Virus record (IMG/VR): IMGVR_UViG_3300025736_000003
Origin: a virus
Length of the DNA stretch: 25,992 bases
Strand: one strand, 5' to 3'
The notes under the pieces were generated by a model. It was not told the DNA's origin and did not search any database. It worked only from the letters and a program-made list of their open reading frames with translations. Shown here in pieces: positions 1-25,992 of this stretch. The position numbers and the translations under genes were made by a program. Every line of letters begins with the position of its first letter. The first letter of the stretch is position 1.

Positions 1-127
1 TGTGTATAACCCTATATCCTTCCTTCTCAGCATACTTTTTACAATATTCCTTCTGCTGTGCTATATTTTGTTGCTCGTCGTCTGTAGAGATTCTAGTGTA
101 TATTATTGCTTCCTTAACCATAAATTA
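1..127. repeat. Terminal overlap identical to 25866-25992 (circular-assembly signature); contains the first 121 nt of the recombinase gene
   Basis: Base-by-base comparison of the first and last 127 nt shows 100% identity. Minus-strand translation of 121..1 gives MVKEAIIYTRISTDDEQQ..., the same N-terminus as the CDS at 25489..25986. Confidence 0.9.
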
Positions 128-217
128 AATTTCCACCCTTATATTCTACAAATTCATTTCTTTGTATCCAGCTAAGGATTTTATCTTTTGTTAATCTATC
201 CATTCGTCTTAGGTTTG
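119..217. repeat. 99-bp perfect direct repeat, copy 1 (starts at the recombinase start codon and covers its upstream region)
   Basis: The string cataaattaaatttccaccc...cattcgtcttaggtttg at 119-217 is identical to 734-832 (offset 615 bp). Confidence 0.9.
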
Positions 218-683
218 TTAGGCGAATTTAGATAATCTTCCAGCTCATCCCAGAATCCTAATTGTGCTTCTATAATTTCTAATAAATCTTCTCTTGAGGT
301 TTCTTCACTAATAAAAACAAAGGTTGCATGTTTTATTATTTCTTGTATTTTTTTTATATCTTTATTGTCCATTGTTCCTATTAACTATCTATTACGTTCC
401 TCAACTTCTTTTAGATGTAATTGATAATCTTCCGTTTTCATCCATTCGGAATATTTACAATTATCAGAAAAGCAATCCATTAATGCTCCGCCACCATCTG
501 AACTAACTAGACATCCACATTTTAACTCTCTTTCAAATGTTCTACCCATTGTTCTTGTCTCCTGTAAATTGCTTTAACTGTTTGACACCTTAAACAAAGT
601 CTCTCTTTTCCAAATGAATTGTCGCCACATCTAATCGGTGTTCCGTTTTCATATGCCAGTAATACTCCACATCCCATCGTATT

Positions 684-902
684 CTAATCAGATTGCGAAT
701 ATAGTTTATTTATGAATGCTTCTAAATCATCAGCATAAATTAAATTTCCACCCTTATATTCTACAAATTCATTTCTTTGTATCCAGCTAAGGATTTTATC
801 TTTTGTTAATCTATCCATTCGTCTTAGGTTTGGACTGCAACTTCTTAAACCACCTTTAGATTTCTTCCATGGCGGATCTATCATTAAAATATCATATTTC
901 AT
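684..902 (-). CDS. Small DPPW-motif protein (72 aa), possibly a fragment or accessory subunit of an amino-methyltransferase
   Basis: IDPPW at residues 8-12 resembles motif IV of N6-adenine/N4-cytosine methyltransferases. Its start overlaps the stop of the upstream gene in an ATGA arrangement. It is too short to be a complete methyltransferase. Confidence 0.4.
   Translation of the reverse strand: MKYDILMIDPPWKKSKGGLRSCSPNLRRMDRLTKDKILSWIQRNEFVEYKGGNLIYADDLEAFINKLYSQSD
734..832. repeat. 99-bp perfect direct repeat, copy 2 (inside the 72-aa DPPW ORF)
   Basis: Identical to 119-217; encodes roughly residues 24-56 of the ORF at 684..902. Confidence 0.9.
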
Positions 903-1549
903 TCTTGCGACCCCTTCTTTAGATTAAGCGTCGAAAATATTTCATGGAATAATGCTGGAGGTATTATTGACCTTTCTTTATTTCCTTTTAACCCCTGTGT
1001 TCCTGTCTTGCTTCCTCTCGGTGCTGCTTCGTGATGGCAATGTTTAGCTCGTCCTTTTAGGAAGTTATGACATGTCTTTGGTTCCCATCCTGGTAAGTTA
1101 GTCCATATGTCTGTAGGTTTTGCTCTTGTGTCTCCGTATTGGCAATACCATGCGGTTTTTCTGCAATCAGTCGGTAAGAACCATCTAGCTCTTGCTCTTG
1201 GGTTTTCTATGAAGAATATTTTATTGTTCTTGTTGCAAAATCTCGCAATCATCAAACAAAAGTCCAATAACTCCTTACCTAGTCTTGCAGCATCCGTTTT
1301 CGGAGATCGATCTGCGTTCCAATGAGTATTCCCCGCAGCCATACTGAAAGTAGTACATGGTGGAGACATCCAAACAACATCAGCCTCTCTTATTTTATTC
1401 CAAATCTCTTCAGTTAATCCATTGTTTAAGTCTACTGTTACATCACAATTAAACTTTGGATTATTGTCTACTGTGAATGTTTCGCATCCAAGTTCCTTAG
1501 CAACCTTACTAAAACTACCTGTTCCTGCGAATAGTTCTACGGTCTTCAT
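899..1549 (-). CDS. AdoMet-dependent DNA methyltransferase-like protein (C5-cytosine type motifs), 216 aa, unusually short
   Basis: ELFAGTGSF (motif I, FxGxG) at residues 5-13, SPPCTTFSMAAG (PC catalytic motif) at 62-73, FFIENP (ENV-like motif VI) at about 111-117, and a GN....IPP motif-X-like C-terminus. AGGAGA lies 7 nt upstream of the ATG. Confidence 0.6.
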   Translation of the reverse strand: MKTVELFAGTGSFSKVAKELGCETFTVDNNPKFNCDVTVDLNNGLTEEIWNKIREADVVWMSPPCTTFSMAAGNTHWNADRSPKTDAARLGKELLDFCLMIARFCNKNNKIFFIENPRARARWFLPTDCRKTAWYCQYGDTRAKPTDIWTNLPGWEPKTCHNFLKGRAKHCHHEAAPRGSKTGTQGLKGNKERSIIPPALFHEIFSTLNLKKGSQE

Positions 1550-1682
1550 TGTGACTTCTCCTGCGACGCATTGTGGACAAATGTCGTATTCTCTTCCAAT
1601 TGTTTTTTTATCTGTTTTACCATTTTGTGTTTGCCCGAAGACTTGTGGGTAGAAAAATATCCGACTAATCTATAATATTAAT

Positions 1683-1975
1683 TTGACCTTGACCTTGACC
1701 ATGACCTTGACCATGACCCTGACCCTGACCCTGACCCTGACCCTGACCATGACCATGACCTTGACCCTGACCTTGACCCTGACCCTGACCATGACCCTGA
1801 CCCTGACCCTGACCCTGACCCTGACCCTGACCCTGACCATGACCCTGACCCTGACCCTGACCATGACCATGACCTTGACCCTGACCTTGACCCTGACCCT
1901 GACCATGACCCTGACCCTGACCCTGACCATGACCCTGACCATGACCTTGACCCTGACCTTGACCCTGACCATGAC
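1683..1975. repeat. Tandem hexanucleotide array (C/T/A)TGACC, about 49 units, with a higher-order duplication
   Basis: Direct reading shows a perfect 6-bp period with variation only at unit position 1. A block of about 65 bp recurs at roughly 1748 and 1863. All frames are open across it, which explains the four ORF-track entries here. Confidence 0.9.
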
Positions 1976-2009
1976 TTATCATAACACACACGAAGTATTA
2001 TTGCGTTAC

Positions 2010-2387
2010 TCATTTTTGCTCCGTTGGGAGTTTAAAGTCTATTTTAAATAAGTCTAACACAGCTTCTCTGTTTATTATAACTTCTGCATCTTTTGGATAT
2101 GGTTCTACTTCATCAAAACTTCCATTTTTACATGCACTTTGCCATCTACCCGTGTCTGGAATCCAACAAGCTTCAGCTAAAACTAATTCTTTATCACTTG
2201 ATTTGATTAATCTTCCTGTATAAATCATTGTTACTGTTCGGATTAAATAGGGTTCTCCTAATTGATAAAATCCTTTTGTTTCAGTCGTTGCTTTAGTTTT
2301 TTGTTTATCTAAAGTTTCTAGTTCTTTTTTAAGGTCTTCAAAGCTTAATTTGTTTAAATCTTTTTTTACTATTTTATTTACCTCCAT
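2010..2387 (-). CDS. Hypothetical protein (125 aa)
   Basis: ORF in the co-directional minus-strand block; no motif recognised. Confidence 0.45.
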   Translation of the reverse strand: MEVNKIVKKDLNKLSFEDLKKELETLDKQKTKATTETKGFYQLGEPYLIRTVTMIYTGRLIKSSDKELVLAEACWIPDTGRWQSACKNGSFDEVEPYPKDAEVIINREAVLDLFKIDFKLPTEQK

Positions 2388-2580
2388 TTAAATTTAGTTT
2401 CTGACTTTGGACATAACCCGTAAGGGTGTCAGCAGAGTGATTATCCGCATCCATAGGCATAACCGTTTTTTTGTCTTCCCCTACTTTGCTTCGTGACTCC
2501 AGTGAGTTTTGTAACGGCACTCCCTCACCTTTTTTACACTGCTGACTATTATTCGCATTATTAATACAGGGCGAATTCAT
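2374..2580 (-). CDS. Hypothetical small protein (68 aa)
   Basis: ORF overlapping the downstream gene by 14 nt; no motif recognised. Confidence 0.3.
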   Translation of the reverse strand: MNSPCINNANNSQQCKKGEGVPLQNSLESRSKVGEDKKTVMPMDADNHSADTLTGYVQSQKLNLNGGK

Positions 2581-2847
2581 CTTTCACTTCTCGGACATTC
2601 ATATTTAGTATCAAAACATGCTTCATATTTTCCTCTGTCTATACAAGCGTAACTATCACAAATTGGGCTTCTTTCTATTATCTCTTGTTGTTCCATGAGT
2701 ATAAAATGTGAGGTAGGTTACGACACGAACCCCACATCCTCTAAGAGAAAGGAAAAAGAGTTGCCGTAGTGACAAAACCTTTCTCTATGAGTATGAATCC
2801 CCTAAACCTGGGGGCGAGTTAAATAATTCTTTTTCCCTGTGGAGAGT

Positions 2848-3201
2848 TTATTCTTCTACAAGATTATACTTAGTTGTCTTAGCTGTGCCTGTTTGCATTA
2901 CCTTAAATTCTGTTTGGCCTTCTGATCCTTTTTTTATGATTTCTCCATAAATTGGATTCTTTGTATTCAACCACCAAACTAATTCAACTTCGCCAACTTT
3001 AACTGGTATAATTTTCTTAACAGCATTTGATTCTGGATCTACCCATTTTTGGAATGCTTCAGAAAAATCAATAATCATAGTAACTATTTTGTTTTCTTCT
3101 AATTTTAAAGATGGTTTTCTTTCGCCATCGAAAGCGTTTTCTTTTAGTGTTTCAGCTTCTTCTTTTAACCAGTCAGTTTTTTGTGTTTCAGTTTCTTCCA
3201 T
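2848..3201 (-). CDS. Hypothetical acidic protein (117 aa)
   Basis: ORF with a canonical AGGAGG 9 nt upstream of the ATG (minus-strand ctaaataaaggaggtaaaacaaATGG). Confidence 0.55.
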   Translation of the reverse strand: MEETETQKTDWLKEEAETLKENAFDGERKPSLKLEENKIVTMIIDFSEAFQKWVDPESNAVKKIIPVKVGEVELVWWLNTKNPIYGEIIKKGSEGQTEFKVMQTGTAKTTKYNLVEE

Positions 3202-3415
3202 TTGTTTTACCTCCTTTATTTAGATTATCAATAATCTCTTGTGCGGTTGTATAAGGTTCATAATATTCTCCAGTATCTTCCAGGGATTTCTTTAATGTGT
3301 ATTGGCATAATTCAATTACTTTCATACAACCATCTCCATCTTTGCTTCGTTATTTCTGATTGTCATTAATCCTTCTTGTCCTACAAAGATTTCGACACCT
3401 AACCCAACATCAACA

Positions 3416-3556
3416 TTACCTTCCATTTTTTTTCTCCTTATTTACAATATCAGCTATATCAACAAAATCACCAACTTCTAAACCAAAGTATTCTCTTGTC
3501 GATTTATCGAGGATGATAACTACTGACCCACCGAATTGTTTTATTTGTTTTATCAT
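3416..3556 (-). CDS. AbrB/SpoVT/MazE-like small DNA-binding protein (46 aa)
   Basis: Translation MIKQIKQFGGSVVIILDKSTREYFGLEVGDFVDIADIVNKEKKNGR has the GxxVVxIxK....GLxxGDxVxI pattern of swapped-hairpin AbrB-type domains. Below the ORF-track length cutoff; found by manual translation. Confidence 0.4.
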   Translation of the reverse strand: MIKQIKQFGGSVVIILDKSTREYFGLEVGDFVDIADIVNKEKKNGR

Positions 3557-3610
3557 ATTTTATTTAGTAATATTAACTATTTAAACCTTTCTATTTGGTG
3601 TTTGGTGTGT

Positions 3611-3787
3611 TCATTTAATAATGACACCATTCTTATTTAGCTTGATTGCTTTTCTAACTTCCTTTAATCCCTCAAACTCATACATATTGAAATGAGGAGT
3701 ACAAAAGATATATTCAATTCCTTTGTGTGCTTCTATTTTTAACTTACCACTACAAGACCCTCCGCAGATACAACATGAAGATGTCAT
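3611..3787 (-). CDS. Cys-rich small protein (58 aa), possible zinc-binding
   Basis: Manual translation MTSSCCICGGSCSGKLKIEAHKGIEYIFCTPHF... with clustered Cys/His. Confidence 0.3.
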   Translation of the reverse strand: MTSSCCICGGSCSGKLKIEAHKGIEYIFCTPHFNMYEFEGLKEVRKAIKLNKNGVIIK

Positions 3788-3864
3788 CCTACAACAAGCA
3801 CCTCAAATCACGATACAATGAAACATTGATTATCATAGGTGCCGAGGTATGAAAAAAAGACGGG

Positions 3865-4287
3865 TTAGTTGTCTTTTAAATTTCCATTGTTTAGGCGTTG
3901 CCTTAGTTTAGTTGTAGGAATAATAGTAGAGATAACTTTTGAGATACCGTTCTTAGCCGTTTTAAGTAAGGTAGAATCGACTTTCTTATCTAAAGTTGTA
4001 GTATTCCTCATATCTAACCATTCGCAGTATGCTCTACACTTGAGAGGGGTGTTATAAATACATTTAAATTTTCTCCTGGAAGTTAATGGGCTGTTGTGTT
4101 TATGAACACAATTCATTCCGTTTGATTTTAAGTATGGGCAGTTGTGTGTTGATCTCATCTTCTTTTGTTTATATGCGTGTTTTCTATTTTCCATTTTTTT
4201 ATCTATACATTCCTCACAGAACTTTGAGAATTTACCGGTTCGTCTAAATAGTTTGCCGCAGCCTAAGCAGGGTTTTTTAAATCTCAT
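3865..4287 (-). CDS. Basic Cys/His-rich protein (140 aa), putative zinc-finger nucleic-acid-binding protein
   Basis: CLGCG...CEEC at the N-terminus plus further C/H pairs (CPYLKSNGMNCVHKH); very Lys/Arg-rich. Confidence 0.5.
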   Translation of the reverse strand: MRFKKPCLGCGKLFRRTGKFSKFCEECIDKKMENRKHAYKQKKMRSTHNCPYLKSNGMNCVHKHNSPLTSRRKFKCIYNTPLKCRAYCEWLDMRNTTTLDKKVDSTLLKTAKNGISKVISTIIPTTKLRQRLNNGNLKDN

Positions 4288-4426
4288 TTGTAAGCTTCAC
4301 CAATTCATTAGTTAATATTTTTATTCTTTTAATATTTTCCTCTAAATCTGTATGAAGTACATCTAATTCCAAATTTATTGCGATTGAGATTGCTTCGATT
4401 TTTTGGTTTTTTGTTGGATTATTCAT
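4279..4426 (-). CDS. Small helical protein (49 aa), hypothetical
   Basis: Manual translation MNNPTKNQKIEAISIAINLELDVLHTDLEENIKRIKILTNELVKLTNEI, with a GAGGTG-like SD about 8 nt upstream. Confidence 0.3.
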
Positions 4427-4481
4427 TTTAACACCTCTGTTTCCTGTGGAGAAGTGGATTGTGCGAACTTTTTTAGTAATT

Positions 4482-4578
4482 TAGAACAACTAGAACAACT
4501 AGAACAGGTGATGTCCACTCAATTCTACATATGGAAAGTAAGTGGGGTTTGCCTGTTCTTCTTGTTCTACCTGTTCTA
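4482..4578. promoter_or_regulatory. Inverted arrays of AGAACA(A/G) repeats (3 + 3 copies) around a 43-bp spacer: candidate origin or operator
   Basis: Three tandem tagaacaac/tagaacagg units at 4482-4508 and, on the opposite strand, cctgttct/tcttgttcta/cctgttcta at 4552-4578. The right arm overlaps the last codons of the primase-helicase gene. Confidence 0.45.
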
Positions 4579-6189
4579 TTTGATAATTTCACCCTTAAAT
4601 TTAATTCCAACCCATGCCCTTCCCTTCTTATTTATATCCCATGGAAGATATTTTAATTTCTGTTCAATCCCTAATTGTTTCATTTTACTACCAATTACTA
4701 CATCTGAAATTTCTCTAAACCTATTTTCTTTACACCATTCGTTTAACTTTTTAGAAAAATCATTTTTCCATACTACACCATCAGAGTCTTCTTCTGTAAA
4801 TTCTTTAAGGAATTTTTCTAAAGGATTACTATGATCCTCATATTTTTTCATTCTATCTTCAATTGTACCTTCATTAGTAAATTCTCTTTTCTCTAATAAA
4901 TCTTTTAATATTAAAGAACATTTAACAGTTAGTGCTTCATATTCCTCATCTGGTATCTCAGATAATATATCTTTCTTTTCTGAAAATTGGTTTGGAAAAT
5001 CTATAATCATCCATCTTCTATAAAATCCAATAGTTTTATCATTTGTGGCTGGAAGATTATTAGTAGCAATCATTATTTTAGCATAATTAATTTCTTCAAA
5101 AGGATCTTTATTTTTATACTCAAACCCTATTAAATCTCCACCTGATAATTTCTTTAAGATAGAAGTTTTATTCATTTCTGAAAAATTAGTTTCTCCCATT
5201 TGACAAACTAATTTTTTATGTAATCGGGTAACCTCAAATCTACTTTGTAATAAAGTATCTAATTCTGTTGAACAGCAATTACTGCCCCCAATAAATTTCC
5301 TGAGTAAATTTAAGAAACAACTTTTACCATTCATACCACCACCAATAAAACAAAAGATTCTATGGATAGGATAATCTGGAATTAAACAATATGCTAATAT
5401 TTCATATAAGGTTTGAACGTGATCCTTCCCAACCCATTCCTCAAATATTTTGTCCATTATGGGAGTTTCATAAAATCCATCTTCATTTAATTTCCATGGT
5501 ATTGGATTAGTAACAAATAGATGTGGTGTTGCCCTTGATTGCTCCCCTGTCTTAATATTCATTATAGTATTTTCAAATTGAACTGTATATTTTCCTATTG
5601 GGGCCGGAATATTTAATCTACTTACTTGTTTAAGAGCTTCAATCATCTCATTTTTTTCCTTAGAATTTATTGTGTTTATTGTTGCTTGTTTATCAACTGC
5701 ATTTAATATATCAGTTTCATCTACTCTTTCCCATTTTGTTTCTGGCCAATTCCATAACCACCAACTTCTAGAATTATCATATAAACAGGGTTGTATTTCA
5801 ATAATATGTTCTGCTAATTCTTTTTTATCGAACATATTCCCAAGTTTTTCTGTTAAATTTTCGACAGGATAATTTTTCTTTTCATTTTCTTCAATAGTTC
5901 TTTTTTGTTTTTTAAAATAATTTAATTGTTCTTTAAGAAGAGTAATTTTTCTACCAGTTTTTTTAGATAAAATTTTTAACGCATCATCTATTTCTAAAGG
6001 GGACAACCCTAAGATATTTTTTAACTCTTTTATTACTTCATCTGACGATGATATTTTTATTTTTTTATCATTTATTAATTCAATAAATCCGTTATCAATA
6101 TATTCCTGTTCATCCCCTCCTGGAAAACTCGCCTCTTTTATCTCTCCAGCTTTCCCACCAGCATAATTTTTTAATATTTTAATTTTCAT
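4576..6189 (-). CDS. D5/P4-family primase-helicase (SF3 helicase domain), 537 aa
   Basis: D5_N-like segment with SRSWWLWNWPETKW. Walker A FIGGGMNGKS (the GxGxNGKS form typical of P4-type primase C-terminal domains), motif C IMIATNNLP, and YRRWMIIDF as an arginine-finger region. Confidence 0.8.
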   Translation of the reverse strand: MKIKILKNYAGGKAGEIKEASFPGGDEQEYIDNGFIELINDKKIKISSSDEVIKELKNILGLSPLEIDDALKILSKKTGRKITLLKEQLNYFKKQKRTIEENEKKNYPVENLTEKLGNMFDKKELAEHIIEIQPCLYDNSRSWWLWNWPETKWERVDETDILNAVDKQATINTINSKEKNEMIEALKQVSRLNIPAPIGKYTVQFENTIMNIKTGEQSRATPHLFVTNPIPWKLNEDGFYETPIMDKIFEEWVGKDHVQTLYEILAYCLIPDYPIHRIFCFIGGGMNGKSCFLNLLRKFIGGSNCCSTELDTLLQSRFEVTRLHKKLVCQMGETNFSEMNKTSILKKLSGGDLIGFEYKNKDPFEEINYAKIMIATNNLPATNDKTIGFYRRWMIIDFPNQFSEKKDILSEIPDEEYEALTVKCSLILKDLLEKREFTNEGTIEDRMKKYEDHSNPLEKFLKEFTEEDSDGVVWKNDFSKKLNEWCKENRFREISDVVIGSKMKQLGIEQKLKYLPWDINKKGRAWVGIKFKGEIIK

Positions 6190-7313
6190 TCTTCAACCAC
6201 ATCTTCTTTATTTTTTATTCTAACTTTACCATTACAATAAGGATAATCCTCACAATACCAAAAAACATTATAACCACCATTTGCTTTTCCTATCTTCATA
6301 CCCTTATTACAAAGAGGACATTTTTGTTTTACAAAAGAATTAACTGTAATATTTTTTAATTCTTCTTCTATTATATTTGTTACTCTCCCACGACATCTTT
6401 CAATTATTGGTGGAATAGAATTTTCAAATTCACTAAGAACATTTTGACAAGTTTCTTTTACTGAATATATATTTATATTGTCTGCTATATTTTTTAATTC
6501 CTCTAATTTTGAATTGTTTATATCTATTAAATTTATTTCATTCTCCGAATATTTCTTAATAGAATTTTTACTCTGTTTAACAACCTTATTTATATTATCC
6601 TCAAATAAATTAAGTTTAGCATCTATAACTTCACCATAATTATTAATTCTTTTTATAAAATTATTTTCCTTATATTCCTCTAACTCAGATAATAATTTTC
6701 TATGAGATTTAATTTCTATATTATCATATTTTAATTTCCAATTAGATGTGAAATCTTCTTTGGTAAACCATACCCCACTAAACCCCTCTATAACTCTACT
6801 ATAATGTCTTTCTATAGTTTCATCATCGTGCTGTTTACTTAATTGTATCTCAAAAAATAATCCTAAGCCATATTTTGGATGAAACTCCTTTAATAAAACC
6901 ATAACATCTGTAATTACATATTCTTCACCAACTGTTCTATATTCTAATAATATATCTTTAACAAGCGTCTTGTTTAATGGAACATTATCAATTTTTATTT
7001 CTCCAGAATATATCCCAGCATAAACATTTTCTTTTGCCTTTTTATGTCCATAACTTTCTCCATTCATATTACTTTTTAATTTGGGTTGGTTTGGCATAGA
7101 CCTAAAATATGCATGAACGATTTTATCATTAGCCTTAGAAAAAGATTTAACAAAAATCATCTCTACCTCTTCACCTTCATTACAGTATACTGGTGTCGCA
7201 ATCAACTTTTCTTTTTCTCTTCCTATCCATGTAGCATCGTTTTCAAATTTAAAAGCAGTAACTAGTTTTTGTGTTTCTTTATGTATAACAGAAATATATT
7301 TTGCGTCACTCAT
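6186..7313 (-). CDS. Replication-associated protein with C-terminal topoisomerase-type zinc ribbon (about 375 aa)
   Basis: C-terminal CPLCNKGMKIGKANGGYNVFWYCEDYPYCNGK matches the C4 zinc-ribbon pattern of topoisomerase I C-terminal fingers. ATGA-coupled to the helicase gene downstream. I placed the start at the ATG at 7313, which is ATGA-coupled to the upstream ORF; the track start at 7328 is TTG. Confidence 0.55.
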   Translation of the reverse strand: MSDAKYISVIHKETQKLVTAFKFENDATWIGREKEKLIATPVYCNEGEEVEMIFVKSFSKANDKIVHAYFRSMPNQPKLKSNMNGESYGHKKAKENVYAGIYSGEIKIDNVPLNKTLVKDILLEYRTVGEEYVITDVMVLLKEFHPKYGLGLFFEIQLSKQHDDETIERHYSRVIEGFSGVWFTKEDFTSNWKLKYDNIEIKSHRKLLSELEEYKENNFIKRINNYGEVIDAKLNLFEDNINKVVKQSKNSIKKYSENEINLIDINNSKLEELKNIADNINIYSVKETCQNVLSEFENSIPPIIERCRGRVTNIIEEELKNITVNSFVKQKCPLCNKGMKIGKANGGYNVFWYCEDYPYCNGKVRIKNKEDVVEE

Positions 7314-7546
7314 TTTATATTTATCCAATATAATTTATTAAGAATTTTATTTATTAAGAACTCTTTATTTGCAGGGCATATAGTTAGATCACCAACTTGT
7401 AATTTTCTACCCATATTTTTTTCTAAACACTTTATACATAATAAATCAGCATCATTATTATATTTTTCCCAAAGATTATTATTAATCATATAAAAATTAT
7501 TAGTATAGGTAATATCTAAACCACATTTATCACATTGGATATTCAT
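7310..7546 (-). CDS. Small zinc-ribbon protein (78 aa)
   Basis: CDKCG ... CIKC pairs; ATGA-type coupling with both neighbours. Confidence 0.45.
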   Translation of the reverse strand: MNIQCDKCGLDITYTNNFYMINNNLWEKYNNDADLLCIKCLEKNMGRKLQVGDLTICPANKEFLINKILNKLYWINIK

Positions 7547-7779
7547 TCTCCCACCTCTTCTTCATAATCTTTAATATCAAATATCTCGTCGAGAAATAAC
7601 CTTTCCTTTTTCCCTTGGATTCTTAAATCCTCAAACCAATAAAATGTTTCGTTCTCTAATTCAGAATGAATAATACCATTAGCAAAACCAGTAGGAACTT
7701 TTTTAACATGACATTTAAGTTTCTCTCTATAGTAGAAATTAGCTTTCTGTTTCACCGCTTTTTGTATATCTTTTTCCAT
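7543..7779 (-). CDS. Hypothetical protein (78 aa)
   Basis: ORF coupled to the downstream gene; a UUCG-tetraloop hairpin (acacc-ttcg-ggtgt on the minus strand) sits just upstream of its ATG. Confidence 0.4.
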   Translation of the reverse strand: MEKDIQKAVKQKANFYYREKLKCHVKKVPTGFANGIIHSELENETFYWFEDLRIQGKKERLFLDEIFDIKDYEEEVGE

Positions 7780-7919
7780 TGCATTCCAACACCCGAAGGT
7801 GTGATATAATCAATTAACTATCCTTTATAATATTTTACCAGAACTACATAATAGTAACACAATAAAAAAATCCAACAACAACTATATAAAGAATGAGAAC
7901 CTTTTAATTCTCTACTTCT

Positions 7920-17133: not shown

Positions 17134-20100
17134 TTACTTCTTTTTCTTTGTCGATTTAGTTTTCTTCTTCGGTGCTTTTCTTTTTGCTGCTTGGATTTCT
17201 ATAGTTTCTGTTTTCTTACTCAATCTCTTACTTCTTCGTTCAATAAATAATTTTCCTAAAGGTGTGTCTTTCTCTCTAAACCCTTTTGGTGCTTTTGGAG
17301 TTTTGCCAGGTGAACTTAATCTAAATGTTGCAGCTAAAGTTTTTGAGGTTACTCTTTTACCAAATTCGAATGCTTGTCGCTGTGTTCTAAAACTTCCAAC
17401 ATTAAAGAACTCTCCACCTCTACGAATTTGAACACCGAAGCCAACTCTTGGTGTTTTTGTGCTTGGTGTTTTTGGAATAATTGGAGGGAATATTATGTTT
17501 ATCTTTCCTATTATTTTGGGTGGTCTTGGTTGTGGTGGTTGAGGAAATCCACCAAATCCAATTATATTAGGTTGTGCAAATTGTTGCCTTTGGAGTTGTC
17601 GCTGTAATTGTTTCTGATTTAATTTTTGATCTTGTCTCTGAATAACTCTACTTATTACTTTCTCTACAGGTTGTTGAAATTGTTTAGACACTAAACGAGA
17701 ATCAGCCCTAGAACTTATCTTCTTTAATTGAGCAACCTTTACACCAAGTATAGAATTTATATCAAGATTAAATGATTGTGATAACTTAGGCTGAATTATT
17801 TGTATAGGAACATCTGTAACTGATACTTCTTGTTTTCCATTTAATAAAGAAGCTATACCTAACCCACCCAACCCTAAACTATCACGAGTACCGCTAATTT
17901 CTAATCCAGGAATAAATGGAGCAGCCCCACCAGATACAGAAGGTACTTTTAATATTTCTTCTGTTGGTTGTACAAATGTAGTTCTTGGTAAATTCAATTC
18001 CTCTCCAAATGCAAACTTAGATGGAACAGGGATTTGTTCTTGAATTTGTTTTGTTGGTTTTGTCTTACTAAAGAAGTCTGTTATTTGTCCCTTCCTAGCT
18101 GCTATCTTTGATTCCTGTGAACTTGTCAAAGATTTAACAACGTCATCAAACTGTTCCCTTGCTAAAGCCCTATCAATAACATCTACTTTTAACTTCCTAG
18201 CTTTTACAACTTTAGAACCAGCTTTTTGTAATGCCTTTAATTCTTTAGATGCAGGATTAATAAATAGGGTTGTAGTTCTCTGACCTGAAAATGCAGTTAT
18301 ATCTCTTTGTATGTTTGGCGTTATTACTTTTGTTAATAGTTTTTGTTTACCCACTTGTCCGAAAAGTGTTTGGTCGAATGTTTTATCAACTCCAAATTCT
18401 ATTTCTTGTGCAATCCTTCTTCTTATTTGAATATTACCCTTAGATCCAACTCTCTTTATTAATCCCTTTCTTTCACTAACTTGAATAATATCCAAGAAAG
18501 ATTTCTCTTTTTGTATGGTTTGTTTTATTCCTTTAGATATATCTCTACCAACTAATGTTGTTGATTCAAATTCTCCAGTAACAAGTTTTGATCTAAGAGA
18601 TACAGGCTTATCTGATAATATTAAATCTCCAACGTCGTCTGTAAGTTTACTACTCTTCTTAACCTTATCACCACTCTTAACAATTAATTCATTAAATGTT
18701 ACACCTGGTTGTCCGAACTGTTTATCAATCTTTAATTTATCTACTTTTGATTTTAAAAATTTTAATTCTGGCAAATCTCCTTTATTCAAACTTTGCTCAA
18801 AAATAGATTTCCCCTTCTTAAATAATTTAACAGTTCCTTTACCACCTTTAGTTACTTCAGTAATTTTAGTTATATCGCCAAACTTAATTGTTTCTTTTAG
18901 AACTCCATCACCTGCGACCTCCGCAAACCCTTCAAACTTTTGTAGTTTCTTACCAATCTTTCTCAACTCAATAACCTTACCGGTTTGCCTAGCTTCAGGT
19001 ATAAATTGTGTTTCTAATATTCTACCTTTTGTTTTAGAACTAACTATGGATTTAGATAGATCATCCACTTTGGAAATCTCTAATCTTGGTTTAGTTATTT
19101 TTAATTTAGAAGTTTCTTTAGCAATCCTTGTTTCTAATATTAATGCTTTTCTTTCTGGGATAGATACAAATTCTTGTAACTTCTTTACCCTACCTGCCTT
19201 AATAGCCTTAACTATACCTCTAGAACCAACCCCTATAGCAAGTCCAACCTCTAATGGATTTTCAACTGCAAAATCAAAGAACGATTCTGGTCCACCAAAA
19301 GCACCCTTACCAACTTGTGCCTCTAATCCTTTAGCAGCAACCTCACCAACGAATGCTCCAGGCAAAGTAAAACCTAATAGTTCAGTACCAACACGAACAG
19401 CCTTACCACCAAACTCTGCCCTTTTTTCAAACCCAGCTTTCTTTTCTATCCCAGGTATATCTGATTTTAATATATCAGTAAATGATTGTTCAACCTCTCC
19501 TAAGAAAATCTCTTTACCAAATCCAATCAAACCTTCACCTTGAAATTTAGATATTGGAACATCTCTAATCTGACCTGGTAATCCTAACCTAACAGTTGGT
19601 CCACCGCCTAACTGGAATGTAGTAGTGTCTCCTTCTTTAACTTCTGTAACAGTTCCTCCACCTGCTTTAAACTGTGACAACTTTAATGAGAAATCTTCCT
19701 GACTTAATCCTTCTTGTAATACTGCTTCTGTTAATGAACTAAACTCTTTTAATTGTCTATCAATTATTCTCTTAGCTTCTGCTATTTGTCCTATTGGAGT
19801 ATCTCCTAGTGATGGTAATGTTTCTCTTAATGGTACGACAACCTTTTCTCTAAAAGCACCAACACCTGACTCAACACCACTAATGATTGGCTGAACACCA
19901 AACTCACTTATTGGAGTTATAAACTCTTTCTCAACTGCCCTAAATACTTTTGATTCACTAAGTGGTATTACAACTTCTTTTTCAAATGTCTTTGCAATAT
20001 CTTTAGATGCCAACCCAACTTCACCAGCGACAATCTTTCCACCAAAACTTAAGGGAGATAAATTTTGTAACTTACTAACTTCAACATCTCTAATCTGTCC

Positions 20101-21350: not shown

Positions 21351-21406
21351 ATCTTAATTAGCAAAGCAAAGTTTAAATACTTACTTACTTACTAATTAAT
21401 GTAAAG

Positions 21407-21859
21407 ATGGCGATGGATGATAATAAAGAAACTACATTTAATGAAGCAGTTTTGAAGATGCAAAGGATTCATATTCTACAACAAGAAATTAATCTACTTA
21501 GAATTAATCTACTTGCATGGAATCTTGAATATAGTAAATATAACTATGATGTTGTAATATCTGATTTAATAAGTTTATGTTATGAGGTTAGGCCTCTTAT
21601 GAAAATAGAGGAAAGAAATGAATTTAGTTTGCTTAAGGAGTTAGTTGATGATTTAATATCATACAAACCTATATTTAAAAAAATTAATACTTCTAATTTC
21701 TCAGGTAAAAATAATAATGAAAGTATCGACACTAATAATTGGAATATGTTAAGGGGTGTTATATTTAAATTTGAGGACTTTGCTAGGGATCAAGTTGATA
21801 TACATGGGCTGTCTGCTCCAAAGAAAAAGGATGCCTCTAGGGCTGCGGTTGATCTATAA
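21407..21859 (+). CDS. Hypothetical protein (150 aa)
   Basis: First gene of the plus-strand block; its stop overlaps the next start (TAATG). Confidence 0.5.
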   Translation: MAMDDNKETTFNEAVLKMQRIHILQQEINLLRINLLAWNLEYSKYNYDVVISDLISLCYEVRPLMKIEERNEFSLLKELVDDLISYKPIFKKINTSNFSGKNNNESIDTNNWNMLRGVIFKFEDFARDQVDIHGLSAPKKKDASRAAVDL

Positions 21860-24936: not shown

Positions 24937-24956
24937 AATTATTAGTAAGTTAGTTA

Positions 24957-25088
24957 CTATTTAAACTTTGTGTTATGTAGTTTTTTATCGAGTGCATTCT
25001 TTAATATTTTAGTTGATATAAAATAAATTAATATTTTTAAAGAGATAACCACTGCTGCTGCTAAAAATATTTTTATCCAAAAATTCAT
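24957..25088 (-). CDS. Tiny membrane protein (43 aa)
   Basis: Manual translation MNFWIKIFLAAAVVISLKILIYFISTKILKNALDKKLHNTKFK; ATGA overlap with the upstream ORF. Confidence 0.3.
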   Translation of the reverse strand: MNFWIKIFLAAAVVISLKILIYFISTKILKNALDKKLHNTKFK

Positions 25089-25264
25089 TGTATATATGTT
25101 TTCCTTTTCCACGACTTCCAGCAACGTCTATGAAAAATCATACCACTCTTTTTAGTTTTCTTATCTTCTTTCCTTATGGGTTTTCCACAGGCTACACATT
25201 TTCTTAAATTTGGATCATCCATCTCAATCTTTCTTTGAACAGCATCCTTAAACCATTTAAACAT
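25085..25264 (-). CDS. Small basic zinc-ribbon-like protein (59 aa)
   Basis: Manual translation ...RKCVACGKPIRKEDKKTKKSGMIFHRRCWKSWKRK; start overlaps the stop of the AbrB-like ORF. Confidence 0.35.
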   Translation of the reverse strand: MFKWFKDAVQRKIEMDDPNLRKCVACGKPIRKEDKKTKKSGMIFHRRCWKSWKRKTYIQ

Positions 25265-25430
25265 TTTGATTCTCCAATATTAATTTATTACCAGAAAAAT
25301 CAAAATTAATTATAGATCCCTTACCTGCACATAAAACTTTCTCAACCATCCACTCCGGAATAGTAAGTGTATAACGCCCAGAATGATATTGTAATTTCAT
25401 GTTTTTATATTGTTTTTTGTTTGTCGCCAT
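25257..25430 (-). CDS. AbrB/SpoVT-like small DNA-binding protein (57 aa)
   Basis: Manual translation MATNKKQYKNMKLQYHSGRYTLTIPEWMVEKVLCAGKGSIINFDFSGNKLILENQNV fits the swapped-hairpin AbrB/MazE pattern. A TTTATATATAA box lies about 28-38 nt upstream of the ATG with no SD, as in a leaderless-type promoter. Confidence 0.4.
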   Translation of the reverse strand: MATNKKQYKNMKLQYHSGRYTLTIPEWMVEKVLCAGKGSIINFDFSGNKLILENQNV

Positions 25431-25488
25431 TTTAAGTAGTATTATGTTGGCATGGTTATATATAAAGTTGTTGTATTAAGGGAGGTCG

Positions 25489-25986
25489 CTAAATCTTCTT
25501 ATTTCTTCCAACCGCACCTTTCTTCCGGCCCTTATATTTCCCTTCAGCTTTTGCCCTAGCTATACCAACTGCTCTCTTTATATTAAGATTATCAATATAA
25601 AAAGCATTCATAGCCATTTTAATTCTAAAAGTGAACTTCCCCATAGGATTAACTAAATCAACCATCTCAGATAAAGATTTAATAATAATATTATTTTTAA
25701 TAACAAAACGTTCAAACCAAACGCTATCATAAAAATCTCTGCAAATCCTATCAACATCCTGAACAATTAAATGTACTGTTGGGTTCTCCTCTAAAAACTT
25801 TAACATCCTTTTACCGCCGCTTCGTTCACAAACATTTATCTTACCACTAATCTTATCTCCAATGGTGTGTATAACCCTATATCCTTCCTTCTCAGCATAC
25901 TTTTTACAATATTCCTTCTGCTGTGCTATATTTTGTTGCTCGTCGTCTGTAGAGATTCTAGTGTATATTATTGCTTCCTTAACCAT
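25489..25986 (-). CDS. Small serine recombinase (resolvase/invertase catalytic domain), 165 aa, no obvious C-terminal HTH
   Basis: N-terminal YTRISTDDEQ motif with Arg10/Ser12 arranged as in resolvase/invertase active sites, and a DRICRD motif around residue 80. The protein stops at ...KGRKKGAVGRNKKI, where the HTH domain of typical resolvases would start. Confidence 0.75.
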   Translation of the reverse strand: MVKEAIIYTRISTDDEQQNIAQQKEYCKKYAEKEGYRVIHTIGDKISGKINVCERSGGKRMLKFLEENPTVHLIVQDVDRICRDFYDSVWFERFVIKNNIIIKSLSEMVDLVNPMGKFTFRIKMAMNAFYIDNLNIKRAVGIARAKAEGKYKGRKKGAVGRNKKI

Positions 25987-25992
25987 AAATTA
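25866..25992. repeat. Terminal overlap, second copy (identical to 1-127)
   Basis: Identical 127-mer at both window ends, implying a unit length of 25,865 bp. Confidence 0.9.

Follow-up and report, generated by a model that had tools for sequence, protein, structure and literature searches.

Serine recombinases are thought to require a covalently attached DNA-binding domain (DBD), and engineers have fused artificial DBDs to their isolated catalytic domains. In Hin and gamma-delta resolvase, the catalytic domain without its DBD binds DNA weakly and with little specificity. Here we describe a locus on the IMG/VR virus record IMGVR_UViG_3300025736_000003, a stretch of 25,992 nucleotides (nt) that was analysed over its whole length and is referred to below as the window, in which a serine recombinase gene ends where the helix-turn-helix (HTH) would normally begin and is followed by a gene for a small AbrB-like protein. 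The two genes form a conserved two-gene module, for which we tentatively propose a role in site-specific recombination. They are located as follows (aa, amino acids; ORF, open reading frame; SD, Shine-Dalgarno sequence; dN/dS, ratio of nonsynonymous to synonymous substitution rates).

25489–25986, minus strand: HTH-less serine recombinase gene, 165 aa, identified by a PF00239 match, alignment, an AlphaFold2 model and purifying selection
25257–25430, minus strand: AbrB/MazE-like (putative swapped-hairpin) gene, 57 aa, with no SD and leaderless-type geometry, identified by family profile and AlphaFold2 fold, dN/dS 0.05–0.29

With the resolvase/invertase group (gamma-delta/Tn3, Hin, Gin and Sin) the window recombinase shares the serine nucleophile, the Arg/Asp set, a long E-helix and a GR arm (KGRKKG here). 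Unlike these enzymes, it has no C-terminal HTH and instead a conserved AbrB-like neighbour, and neither a three-subsite res region nor an invertible segment flanked by inverted repeats was found in the window. Among the IS607 TnpA proteins (ISC1926, IS1535), ISC1926 TnpA is one of its best matches in both sequence and fold; TnpA, however, carries an N-terminal MerR/HTH_17-type DBD, whereas the window recombinase starts straight at beta-strand 1 without any N-terminal DBD, and no TnpB-like neighbour was present among the context genes scanned. Large serine integrases with their recombination directionality factors (RDFs) resemble the arrangement proposed here in that the activity of a serine recombinase depends on a small, separately encoded partner, but these integrases have extensive DBDs of their own (recombinase and zinc-ribbon) and exceed 400 aa. 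RDFs set the direction of the reaction and not DNA recognition, and to our knowledge no described RDF is AbrB-like.

Engineered chimeras of Gin or Tn3 catalytic domains are cut near the end of the E-helix or the arm, the same region as the natural end point of the window recombinase. They differ in that their DBD is covalently fused and activating mutations are used, whereas the candidate DBD here would be the product of a separate gene. According to two reports (PMC3510496, PMC5175349), a catalytic domain cut near the E-helix or arm works when a separate DNA-binding module delivers it, and zinc-finger, TALE and dCas9 recombinases contain serine-recombinase catalytic domains detached from their native DBD; such engineered enzymes make a separable DBD plausible. 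In the literature searched, we found no paper on HTH-less serine recombinases paired with AbrB-like proteins, no description of a serine recombinase with a separately encoded DNA-binding subunit, and no AbrB-family member acting as a recombinase partner. Nor do we know of any such partner.

A serine recombinase family without a DNA-binding domain

The recombinase matched the Pfam Resolvase family PF00239 at residues 5–151, covering the full profile (1–145 of 145; E 2e-26), and matched no HTH or other DNA-binding Pfam family. The catalytic set comprises Y8, R10, S12, D79, R80 and R83 and is followed by the E-helix (residues 114–147) and a basic GRKKG...KKI tail; 27 family members show no variation at Y8, R10, S12, T13, R80 and R83, and at least 90% of them keep D79. 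By sequence, the nearest solved relatives are the catalytic domains of TP901-1 integrase, Gin (E 9e-8) and ISC1926 TnpA. The AlphaFold2 model (pLDDT 88) contains the catalytic core, the E-helix (pLDDT >90) and a disordered tail at residues 148–165. Its fold matches were exclusively serine-recombinase catalytic domains, with TP901-1, ISC1926, Sin and gamma-delta at the top and Gin included, and the model superposes on chains of the gamma-delta resolvase and Sin tetramers.

The end point was located by aligning the window recombinase and its homologs with three HTH-bearing invertases (P0086, P0098 and P0117). The recombinase and the invertases have the end of the E-helix and the GR arm in common (GIARAKAEGKYKGRKKG), and the recombinase then terminates with GKYKGRKKGAVGRNKKI about 10 residues past the conserved GR arm, short of HTH helix 1 in all three invertases. 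The alignment thus confirms the view of the preliminary description that the protein stops before the HTH. It is a natural minimal serine recombinase, consisting of the catalytic domain, the E-helix and the minor-groove GR arm and ending where an HTH would begin.

A sequencing error or frameshift near position 25489, or else a defective enzyme, had been considered as an explanation for the short protein. The recombinase stop codon is separated from the next ATG by 58 nt, a gap in which no HTH could be concealed by a frameshift, and read-through past the TAG adds ten codons (RPPLIQQLYI) before the next stop. An identical recombinase was present on four further contigs from other samples, making five assemblies in all, and these four contigs matched the window at 100% identity over the gene and roughly the next 1 kb. 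Recovery of an HTH by frameshift or read-through is therefore ruled out.

The same architecture extends over a family. A protein search returned about 85 recombinase cluster representatives of about 155–187 aa, with 34–100% identity and PF00239 alone, and HTH-bearing invertases appeared in it only at E >1e-7. A metagenome scan added 80 loci to give a total of 87, corresponding to 61 recombinase clusters at 95% identity, and the complete recombinases in these loci were all 154–180 aa long and without an HTH. Pairwise dN/dS between recombinases ranged from 0.03 to 0.18, with dS often saturated. Judged from these comparisons, the recombinase is intact, conserved and under purifying selection. Because the contigs are identical, the end point is conserved, the catalytic residues are invariant and dN/dS is low, we reject both the sequencing error and the defective enzyme, and the recombinase is almost certainly a genuine, functional protein.

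The AbrB-like protein

The 57-aa protein itself had no Pfam match at E values up to 1, whereas 5 of 15 relatives matched PF04014 (AbrB/MazE), the best at E 4.9e-4. When the family profile was compared with the PDB, Sulfolobus AbrB-family chains ranked first with a marginal E value of 0.07. The AlphaFold2 monomer (pLDDT 81) has two beta-hairpins with a helix between them, and its best matches were MazE, AbrB, SpoVT and VapB (probability 0.99 and TM-score 0.60, at a marginal E value of 0.13). In comparison with AbrB/SpoVT/MazE proteins, including the archaeal Sso7c4 type (PDB 2l66, 5itm), the protein has a similar size of about 50 aa, the pattern ...xxTIPxx...GDxxxF... and a predicted beta-rich fold, but the matches remain marginal (E 0.07–0.13) and the window protein falls below the Pfam threshold. 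Family members are 54–68 aa long and have no C-terminal extension. The name AbrB-like, which had been given to this ORF at first reading, is thus borne out by the relatives, the profile and the fold match; on the basis of the models, it appears well supported at the level of fold only.

Some relatives (P0144, P0157 and P0158) carry two or four tandem copies of the domain per chain (RRLQRTNKDQYTLTIPKALV repeats), which fits a fold acting as a dimer. A second small ORF in the window, at 3416–3556 on the minus strand, encodes 46 aa (MIKQIKQFGGSVVIILDK...GDFVDI...) that look AbrB-like by eye, without Pfam support; a TTTAAATA box begins 29 nt ahead of its ATG.

Linkage of the two genes

In the clade of at least 50% identity, an AbrB-like ORF lies directly downstream of the recombinase (gap 4–87 nt) in about 40 of the 42 clusters with sufficient flank. 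When same-strand neighbours within 2.5 kb were clustered over 37 dereplicated loci, the AbrB-like family was present in 36 and the next commonest neighbour family in 6. The order is reversed, with the AbrB-like gene preceding the recombinase, in L100 and L102, and one ORF separates the two genes in L118 and L146. In a clade of 36% identity (L159 and L165–L168), a 48-aa AbrB-like gene is convergent with the recombinase. Reciprocally, three AbrB homologs that were picked independently each adjoin a gene with the Resolvase domain alone. Linkage that persists through rearranged order and orientation argues for more than gene-order conservation within one virus family, and the two genes are probably a functional pair.

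In L159 there is no insert and the stop codons of the two convergent genes overlap, and in L165–L167 variable cassettes fill the exact interval from the recombinase stop to the convergent AbrB-like gene. One such cassette is a 186-aa HNH-endonuclease-like ORF in L165 (502–1062, minus strand), with the equivalent position in L166 and L167.

The promoter of the AbrB-like gene and its conserved elements

Three elements were identified around the start of the AbrB-like gene.

25475–25491, minus strand: conserved motif TAG-CG-ACCTCCCTTAAT, which takes in the stop codon of the recombinase and is followed, after 8 nt, by the TATA box
25456–25466, minus strand: TATA-like box TTTATATATAA, with the AbrB-like ATG (25430) 25 nt past the end and 36 nt past the start of the box
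25442–25453, minus strand: element ATGCCAACATAA (family pattern ATG[ACT]CTACATAA), a candidate operator located after the TATA box and before the predicted transcription start

In archaeal leaderless promoters, the TATA box lies about 24–30 nt before the transcription start, the start is at or near the ATG, and there is no SD. The sequence from the box to the AbrB-like ATG (ccatgccaacataatactacttaaa) contains no GGAGG-like stretch. In the window, TTTAAATA boxes also occur 29–35 nt ahead of the ATGs at 21407 (plus strand), 24936 (minus strand) and 3556 (minus strand), which apparently open transcription units, and operon-internal genes carry GGAGGT. A TATA-like box precedes the AbrB-like gene in 41 of 44 related loci, mostly 29–37 nt from the ATG, and in part of the distant clade the leader is longer and includes an SD. 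The leaderless-type geometry noted in the preliminary description recurs at other first genes of the window and in the related loci; it fits the archaeal leaderless type with a predicted transcription start.

The motif upstream of the TATA box is flanked by a dyad, with the family consensus (A/T)TTAG-N8-CTAAA(T) and an N8 core close to CACCTCC. The strict pattern was found in 26 of the 44 loci and in 2.4% of background windows. The window contains a single exact copy, there is one per genome, and no convincing second copy was found in the window or in any locus. The DNA of the motif is conserved even where the recombinase ORF runs through it in another frame, so the motif is not coding. Where the two genes are convergent, reversed or spaced apart, it remains ahead of the AbrB TATA box and not at the 3′ end of the recombinase, sometimes in the opposite orientation. 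The spacer is laid out in the order dyad motif, 12 or about 20 nt, TATA box, type-A ATG[ACT]CTACATAA element and ATG. The ATGCCAACATAA-type element accompanies one of two types of AbrB-like gene, type A, and its covariation with AbrB type was judged by sequence inspection. On these grounds the dyad motif is a good candidate for the binding site of a dimeric protein, which may serve as an operator only or also as a recombination site.

On the sense strand, the dyad core CACCTCC[CT]T of about 35 related loci is identical to what we take to be the anti-SD 3′ end of 16S rRNA. In the distant clade, the core occurs as an approximate reverse complement (GGCGTGGT) within unchanged TTAG/CTAAA flanks. 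An RNA hairpin of this anti-SD-like motif with upstream coding sequence was considered and rejected, as the pairing was not conserved on inspection and Rfam gave no matches.

Direct repeats and a variable region ahead of the recombinase gene

Because the window is a circular assembly, the sequence ahead of the recombinase start is found from window position 122 onward. Two copies of a 99-bp direct repeat lie in this part of the window.

1–127, no strand: terminal overlap, an exact 127-nt copy of 25866–25992 that marks circular closure and contains the first 121 nt of the recombinase gene
119–217, minus strand: copy 1 of the 99-bp exact direct repeat, abutting the recombinase ATG (CAT at 119–121), strain-specific
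734–832, minus strand: copy 2 of the 99-bp repeat, within a 72-aa ORF at 684–902

Copy 1 is a duplication of part of the neighbouring 72-aa ORF and creates a 29-aa ORF (MDRLTKDKILSWIQRNEFVEYKGGNLIYG), which overlaps the recombinase ATG in a different reading frame. A DPPW motif and a weak HTH_17 match (E 0.017) are present in the parent ORF, and the strain-specific 29-aa ORF includes the HTH_17 stretch.

Contig L089 contains both copies. In contigs L090 and L091, identity with the window begins 6 nt before the recombinase ATG and holds over the 1.5 kb compared; upstream of this point both carry a truncated C5-methylase N-terminus (MKILELFSGYGTASFALKQLGIIYG; L090 1–253, L091 1–239), with the join at a common TAATTTATG. 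Copy 1 and three small ORFs are missing from L091, and the upstream sequence of L090 also differs. L091 does not have the structure that a deletion by recombination between the 99-bp repeats should leave. No conserved counterpart or shared DNA motif was found at the recombinase start codon across the family lineages. The 99-bp repeats, for which recombination had been suggested, are thus a strain-specific duplication that is absent from L091 and has no family counterpart upstream of the start, and they are unlikely to be the substrates of the enzyme. A conserved site at the recombinase start was likewise discarded, as no motif is shared there and the breakpoints at this position are matched by breakpoints at other gene junctions.

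A similar cassette replacement directly upstream of the recombinase was found in an unrelated lineage (L127–L131 and L138). More generally, cassettes of the small-ORF region upstream of the recombinase (about 128–4600 in the window; L127–L131, L138 and L123) are swapped between genomes that are otherwise 99–100% identical. Many ORFs of this region end alike (..HEN.GVK.GD or ..ILGDKE before the stop), overlapping the SD and start of the next gene, and these ends could be shuffling junctions. The region may be a hyperplastic early-gene region, with the recombinase possibly taking part in its turnover.

Proposed role and alternative explanations

We propose that the two genes constitute a site-specific recombination module, and we give this explanation as a whole a probability of about 40%. 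The AbrB-like protein, as a dimer or tetramer, would occupy both the dyad motif and the element that follows the TATA box ahead of the transcription start, and its gene would thereby be autoregulated. Once bound, it would also mark or shape the one place in each genome where the DBD-less recombinase assembles, and the AbrB-like protein would thus stand in, in trans, for the absent HTH or for an accessory protein such as Fis or HU. Such a module would most likely resolve multimers of the replicon or recombine co-resident genomes with one another, and insertion into a chromosome is less likely. DNA targeting in trans was raised in the preliminary description; that the AbrB-like protein provides it is a tentative proposal: the near-obligatory, order-independent linkage has made it more credible, and the absence of fusions and the weak co-evolution described below have not. 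That the reaction is multimer resolution of the circular replicon is somewhat doubtful. It is also rather speculative that the system is a natural split recombinase, in which an exchangeable AbrB-fold protein would recognise the dyad motif by its own promoter and a swap of partner would re-target the enzyme.

Several observations weigh against this proposal. No AbrB-like neighbour was detectable in L008 and L163. L177, a 32.8-kb contig with a primase 76% identical to that of the window, carries a different HTH-less recombinase of 163 aa without an AbrB neighbour. No fusion of recombinase and AbrB was found among 29 profile matches in 1.84 billion representatives. Two AbrB types, A and B, with a mutual identity of about 20%, occur in scattered positions on the recombinase tree; pairwise identities of recombinase and AbrB are weakly correlated (Mantel r = 0.14), indicating weak co-evolution; and the recombinase tail does not follow the AbrB partner type. 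These last three results argue against a tight, specific protein-protein interface. The dyad motif moves with the AbrB promoter and so may be a plain autoregulatory operator, and no recombination product with a junction at the dyad motif was found.

Much of this evidence would also fit a link that is regulatory only, an explanation that is possible, if on the unlikely side. The AbrB-like protein would then be an autoregulated transcription factor that controls the following transcription unit, for example as a switch of the early/late or immunity type, and the recombinase would find DNA alone through its E-helix and GR arm, or with a host factor; its placement would be like that of repressor genes beside int in temperate phages. 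The AbrB-like gene indeed owns its TATA box and the conserved motifs sit within its promoter, and the element between TATA and start appears, on inspection, to differ between AbrB types. The types are swapped freely relative to the recombinase, as immunity modules are, and the absence of fusions and the recombinase of L177 without an AbrB neighbour point in the same direction. On the other hand, the pair is kept in three orders and orientations while all other neighbours vary, which is unexpected for a regulator of downstream genes only, and a catalytic domain without a DBD binds DNA poorly, as noted above for Hin and gamma-delta resolvase.

It is improbable that the recombinase is an integrase, with the single-copy motif (core CACCTCC) as an attP-like site and the AbrB-like protein as a directionality or targeting factor. 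A single conserved site adjoins the recombinase gene, as attP usually does, and its core presumably resembles a universally conserved host sequence, the anti-SD end of 16S rRNA; the match, however, covers just 7–8 nt, and the motif changes orientation with respect to its flanks. A search of 185,579 species-representative genomes turned up no integrated relative: none exceeded 35% identity, and the best match, at 35%, was an HTH-bearing bacterial invertase. Among cultured phages, archaeal viruses and GTDB genomes there were likewise no close relatives, only distant HTH-bearing invertases. The related loci are all on virus-sized contigs without tRNA genes (none in the window and none among the 28 loci scanned), and the related L177 has a dedicated tyrosine integrase. 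The two L177 genes, for the tyrosine integrase (PF00589) and the HTH-less serine recombinase, are at 7027–7854 and 18583–19074, respectively, with L178 listed alongside; the L177 recombinase ends with GRPRLKRSRKTGGVL, just past a GRPR arm, and is followed by a 138-aa coiled-coil-like ORF. The presence of both enzymes in L177 suggests that HTH-less serine recombinases recur in this group of elements and that their role is not integration.

Slightly less probable still is cassette exchange, in which the recombinase would shuffle the neighbouring hypervariable small-ORF region at short gene-junction sequences, in the manner of an integron or shufflon. Replaced cassettes do lie directly upstream of the recombinase start in the window compared with L090 and L091, contigs that are otherwise identical over the compared stretches, and likewise in a second lineage (L127, L128 and L131 compared with L129, L130 and L138). 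The distant clade has its replaced cassettes immediately after the stop codon, and short repeats are found at the junctions. Breakpoints, however, also fall at gene junctions more distant from the recombinase, the repeats at the junctions code for C-terminal peptides and an SD, so that homologous or microhomology exchange could suffice, and the junctions share no dyad-symmetric core.

A toxin-antitoxin or defence system is very improbable; in it, the toxin would be the nuclease-like recombinase domain without a DBD, and the AbrB-fold protein would be a MazE/VapB-type antitoxin. MazE and VapB antitoxins are among the best fold matches of the small protein, but this protein is about 55 aa long and has no C-terminal toxin-binding extension, and the full catalytic set and the E-helix are conserved in the recombinase. 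Unlike in type II systems with an AbrB-fold antitoxin, the partner is a serine recombinase and not a PIN/MazF-type toxin, and the genes are not in a co-transcribed arrangement, having separate promoters and variable order and orientation. Finally, truncation, decay or mis-assembly of an ordinary HTH-bearing invertase gene has next to no chance of explaining the recombinase gene; its short length is the sole argument, against which stand the identical sequence in five assemblies, the end point kept in 61 locus clusters, the invariant catalytic residues, the dN/dS of 0.03–0.18 and the lack of space for an HTH downstream.

The replicon and its other genes

Counting the terminal overlap once, the replicon is 25,865 bp long, with a GC content of about 31%, and the junction of the circle is spanned by the independent contig L089 from another JGI sample. 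Besides the two genes of the module, recognisable window genes comprise a D5/P4-type primase-helicase, a C5-methylase-like gene, many small ORFs, and large Laminin_G/beta-helix proteins that are adhesin-like in appearance. The replicon is probably an archaeal, virus- or plasmid-like circular element of 25.9 kb.

The primase-helicase (4576–6189, minus strand) has 60–80% identity across at least 1,889 proteins, and the listed matches are on contigs of up to about 45 kb. This conservation places the element in a large undescribed group, in which the recombinase/AbrB module seems to be present in a minority only, as recombinase matches were far fewer. The organism labels on the primase homologs came from two NCBI metagenome-assembled genome bins only, both bacterial and contradictory (Spirochaetia and Elusimicrobiota).

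The sole long inverted repeat, I2 (30 nt, 90% identical; 21367–21396, plus strand, and 24941–24970, minus strand), consists of two copies of one promoter (AAAGTTTAAATA) and was rejected as the border of an invertible segment. The copies drive two convergent transcription units with ATGs at 21407 and 24936, which include a 104-aa protein with two transmembrane segments and a 232-aa membrane protein; a search for a capsid identity of the 104-aa protein gave no matches. At 1684–1975, the hexamer TGACCC is repeated 48.7 times in tandem with 90% matches, although the repeat finder reports a 12-nt period, and every frame of the array is open on both strands (GQ/GH, SG/SW and VR/VK repeats).

Implications

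A widespread natural family of recombinases that is under selection and consists of the catalytic domain alone, with a constant small DNA-binding neighbour, would provide a natural test of delegated targeting. If targeting is indeed delegated, compact and re-targetable recombinases might result. Even if the AbrB-like protein is only a regulator, the puzzle stays how a DBD-less recombinase of 160 aa finds its site. In either case, a conserved accessory module and its cis elements are defined here in a large and barely studied group of circular elements of 20–45 kb from anoxic saline waters and sediments.

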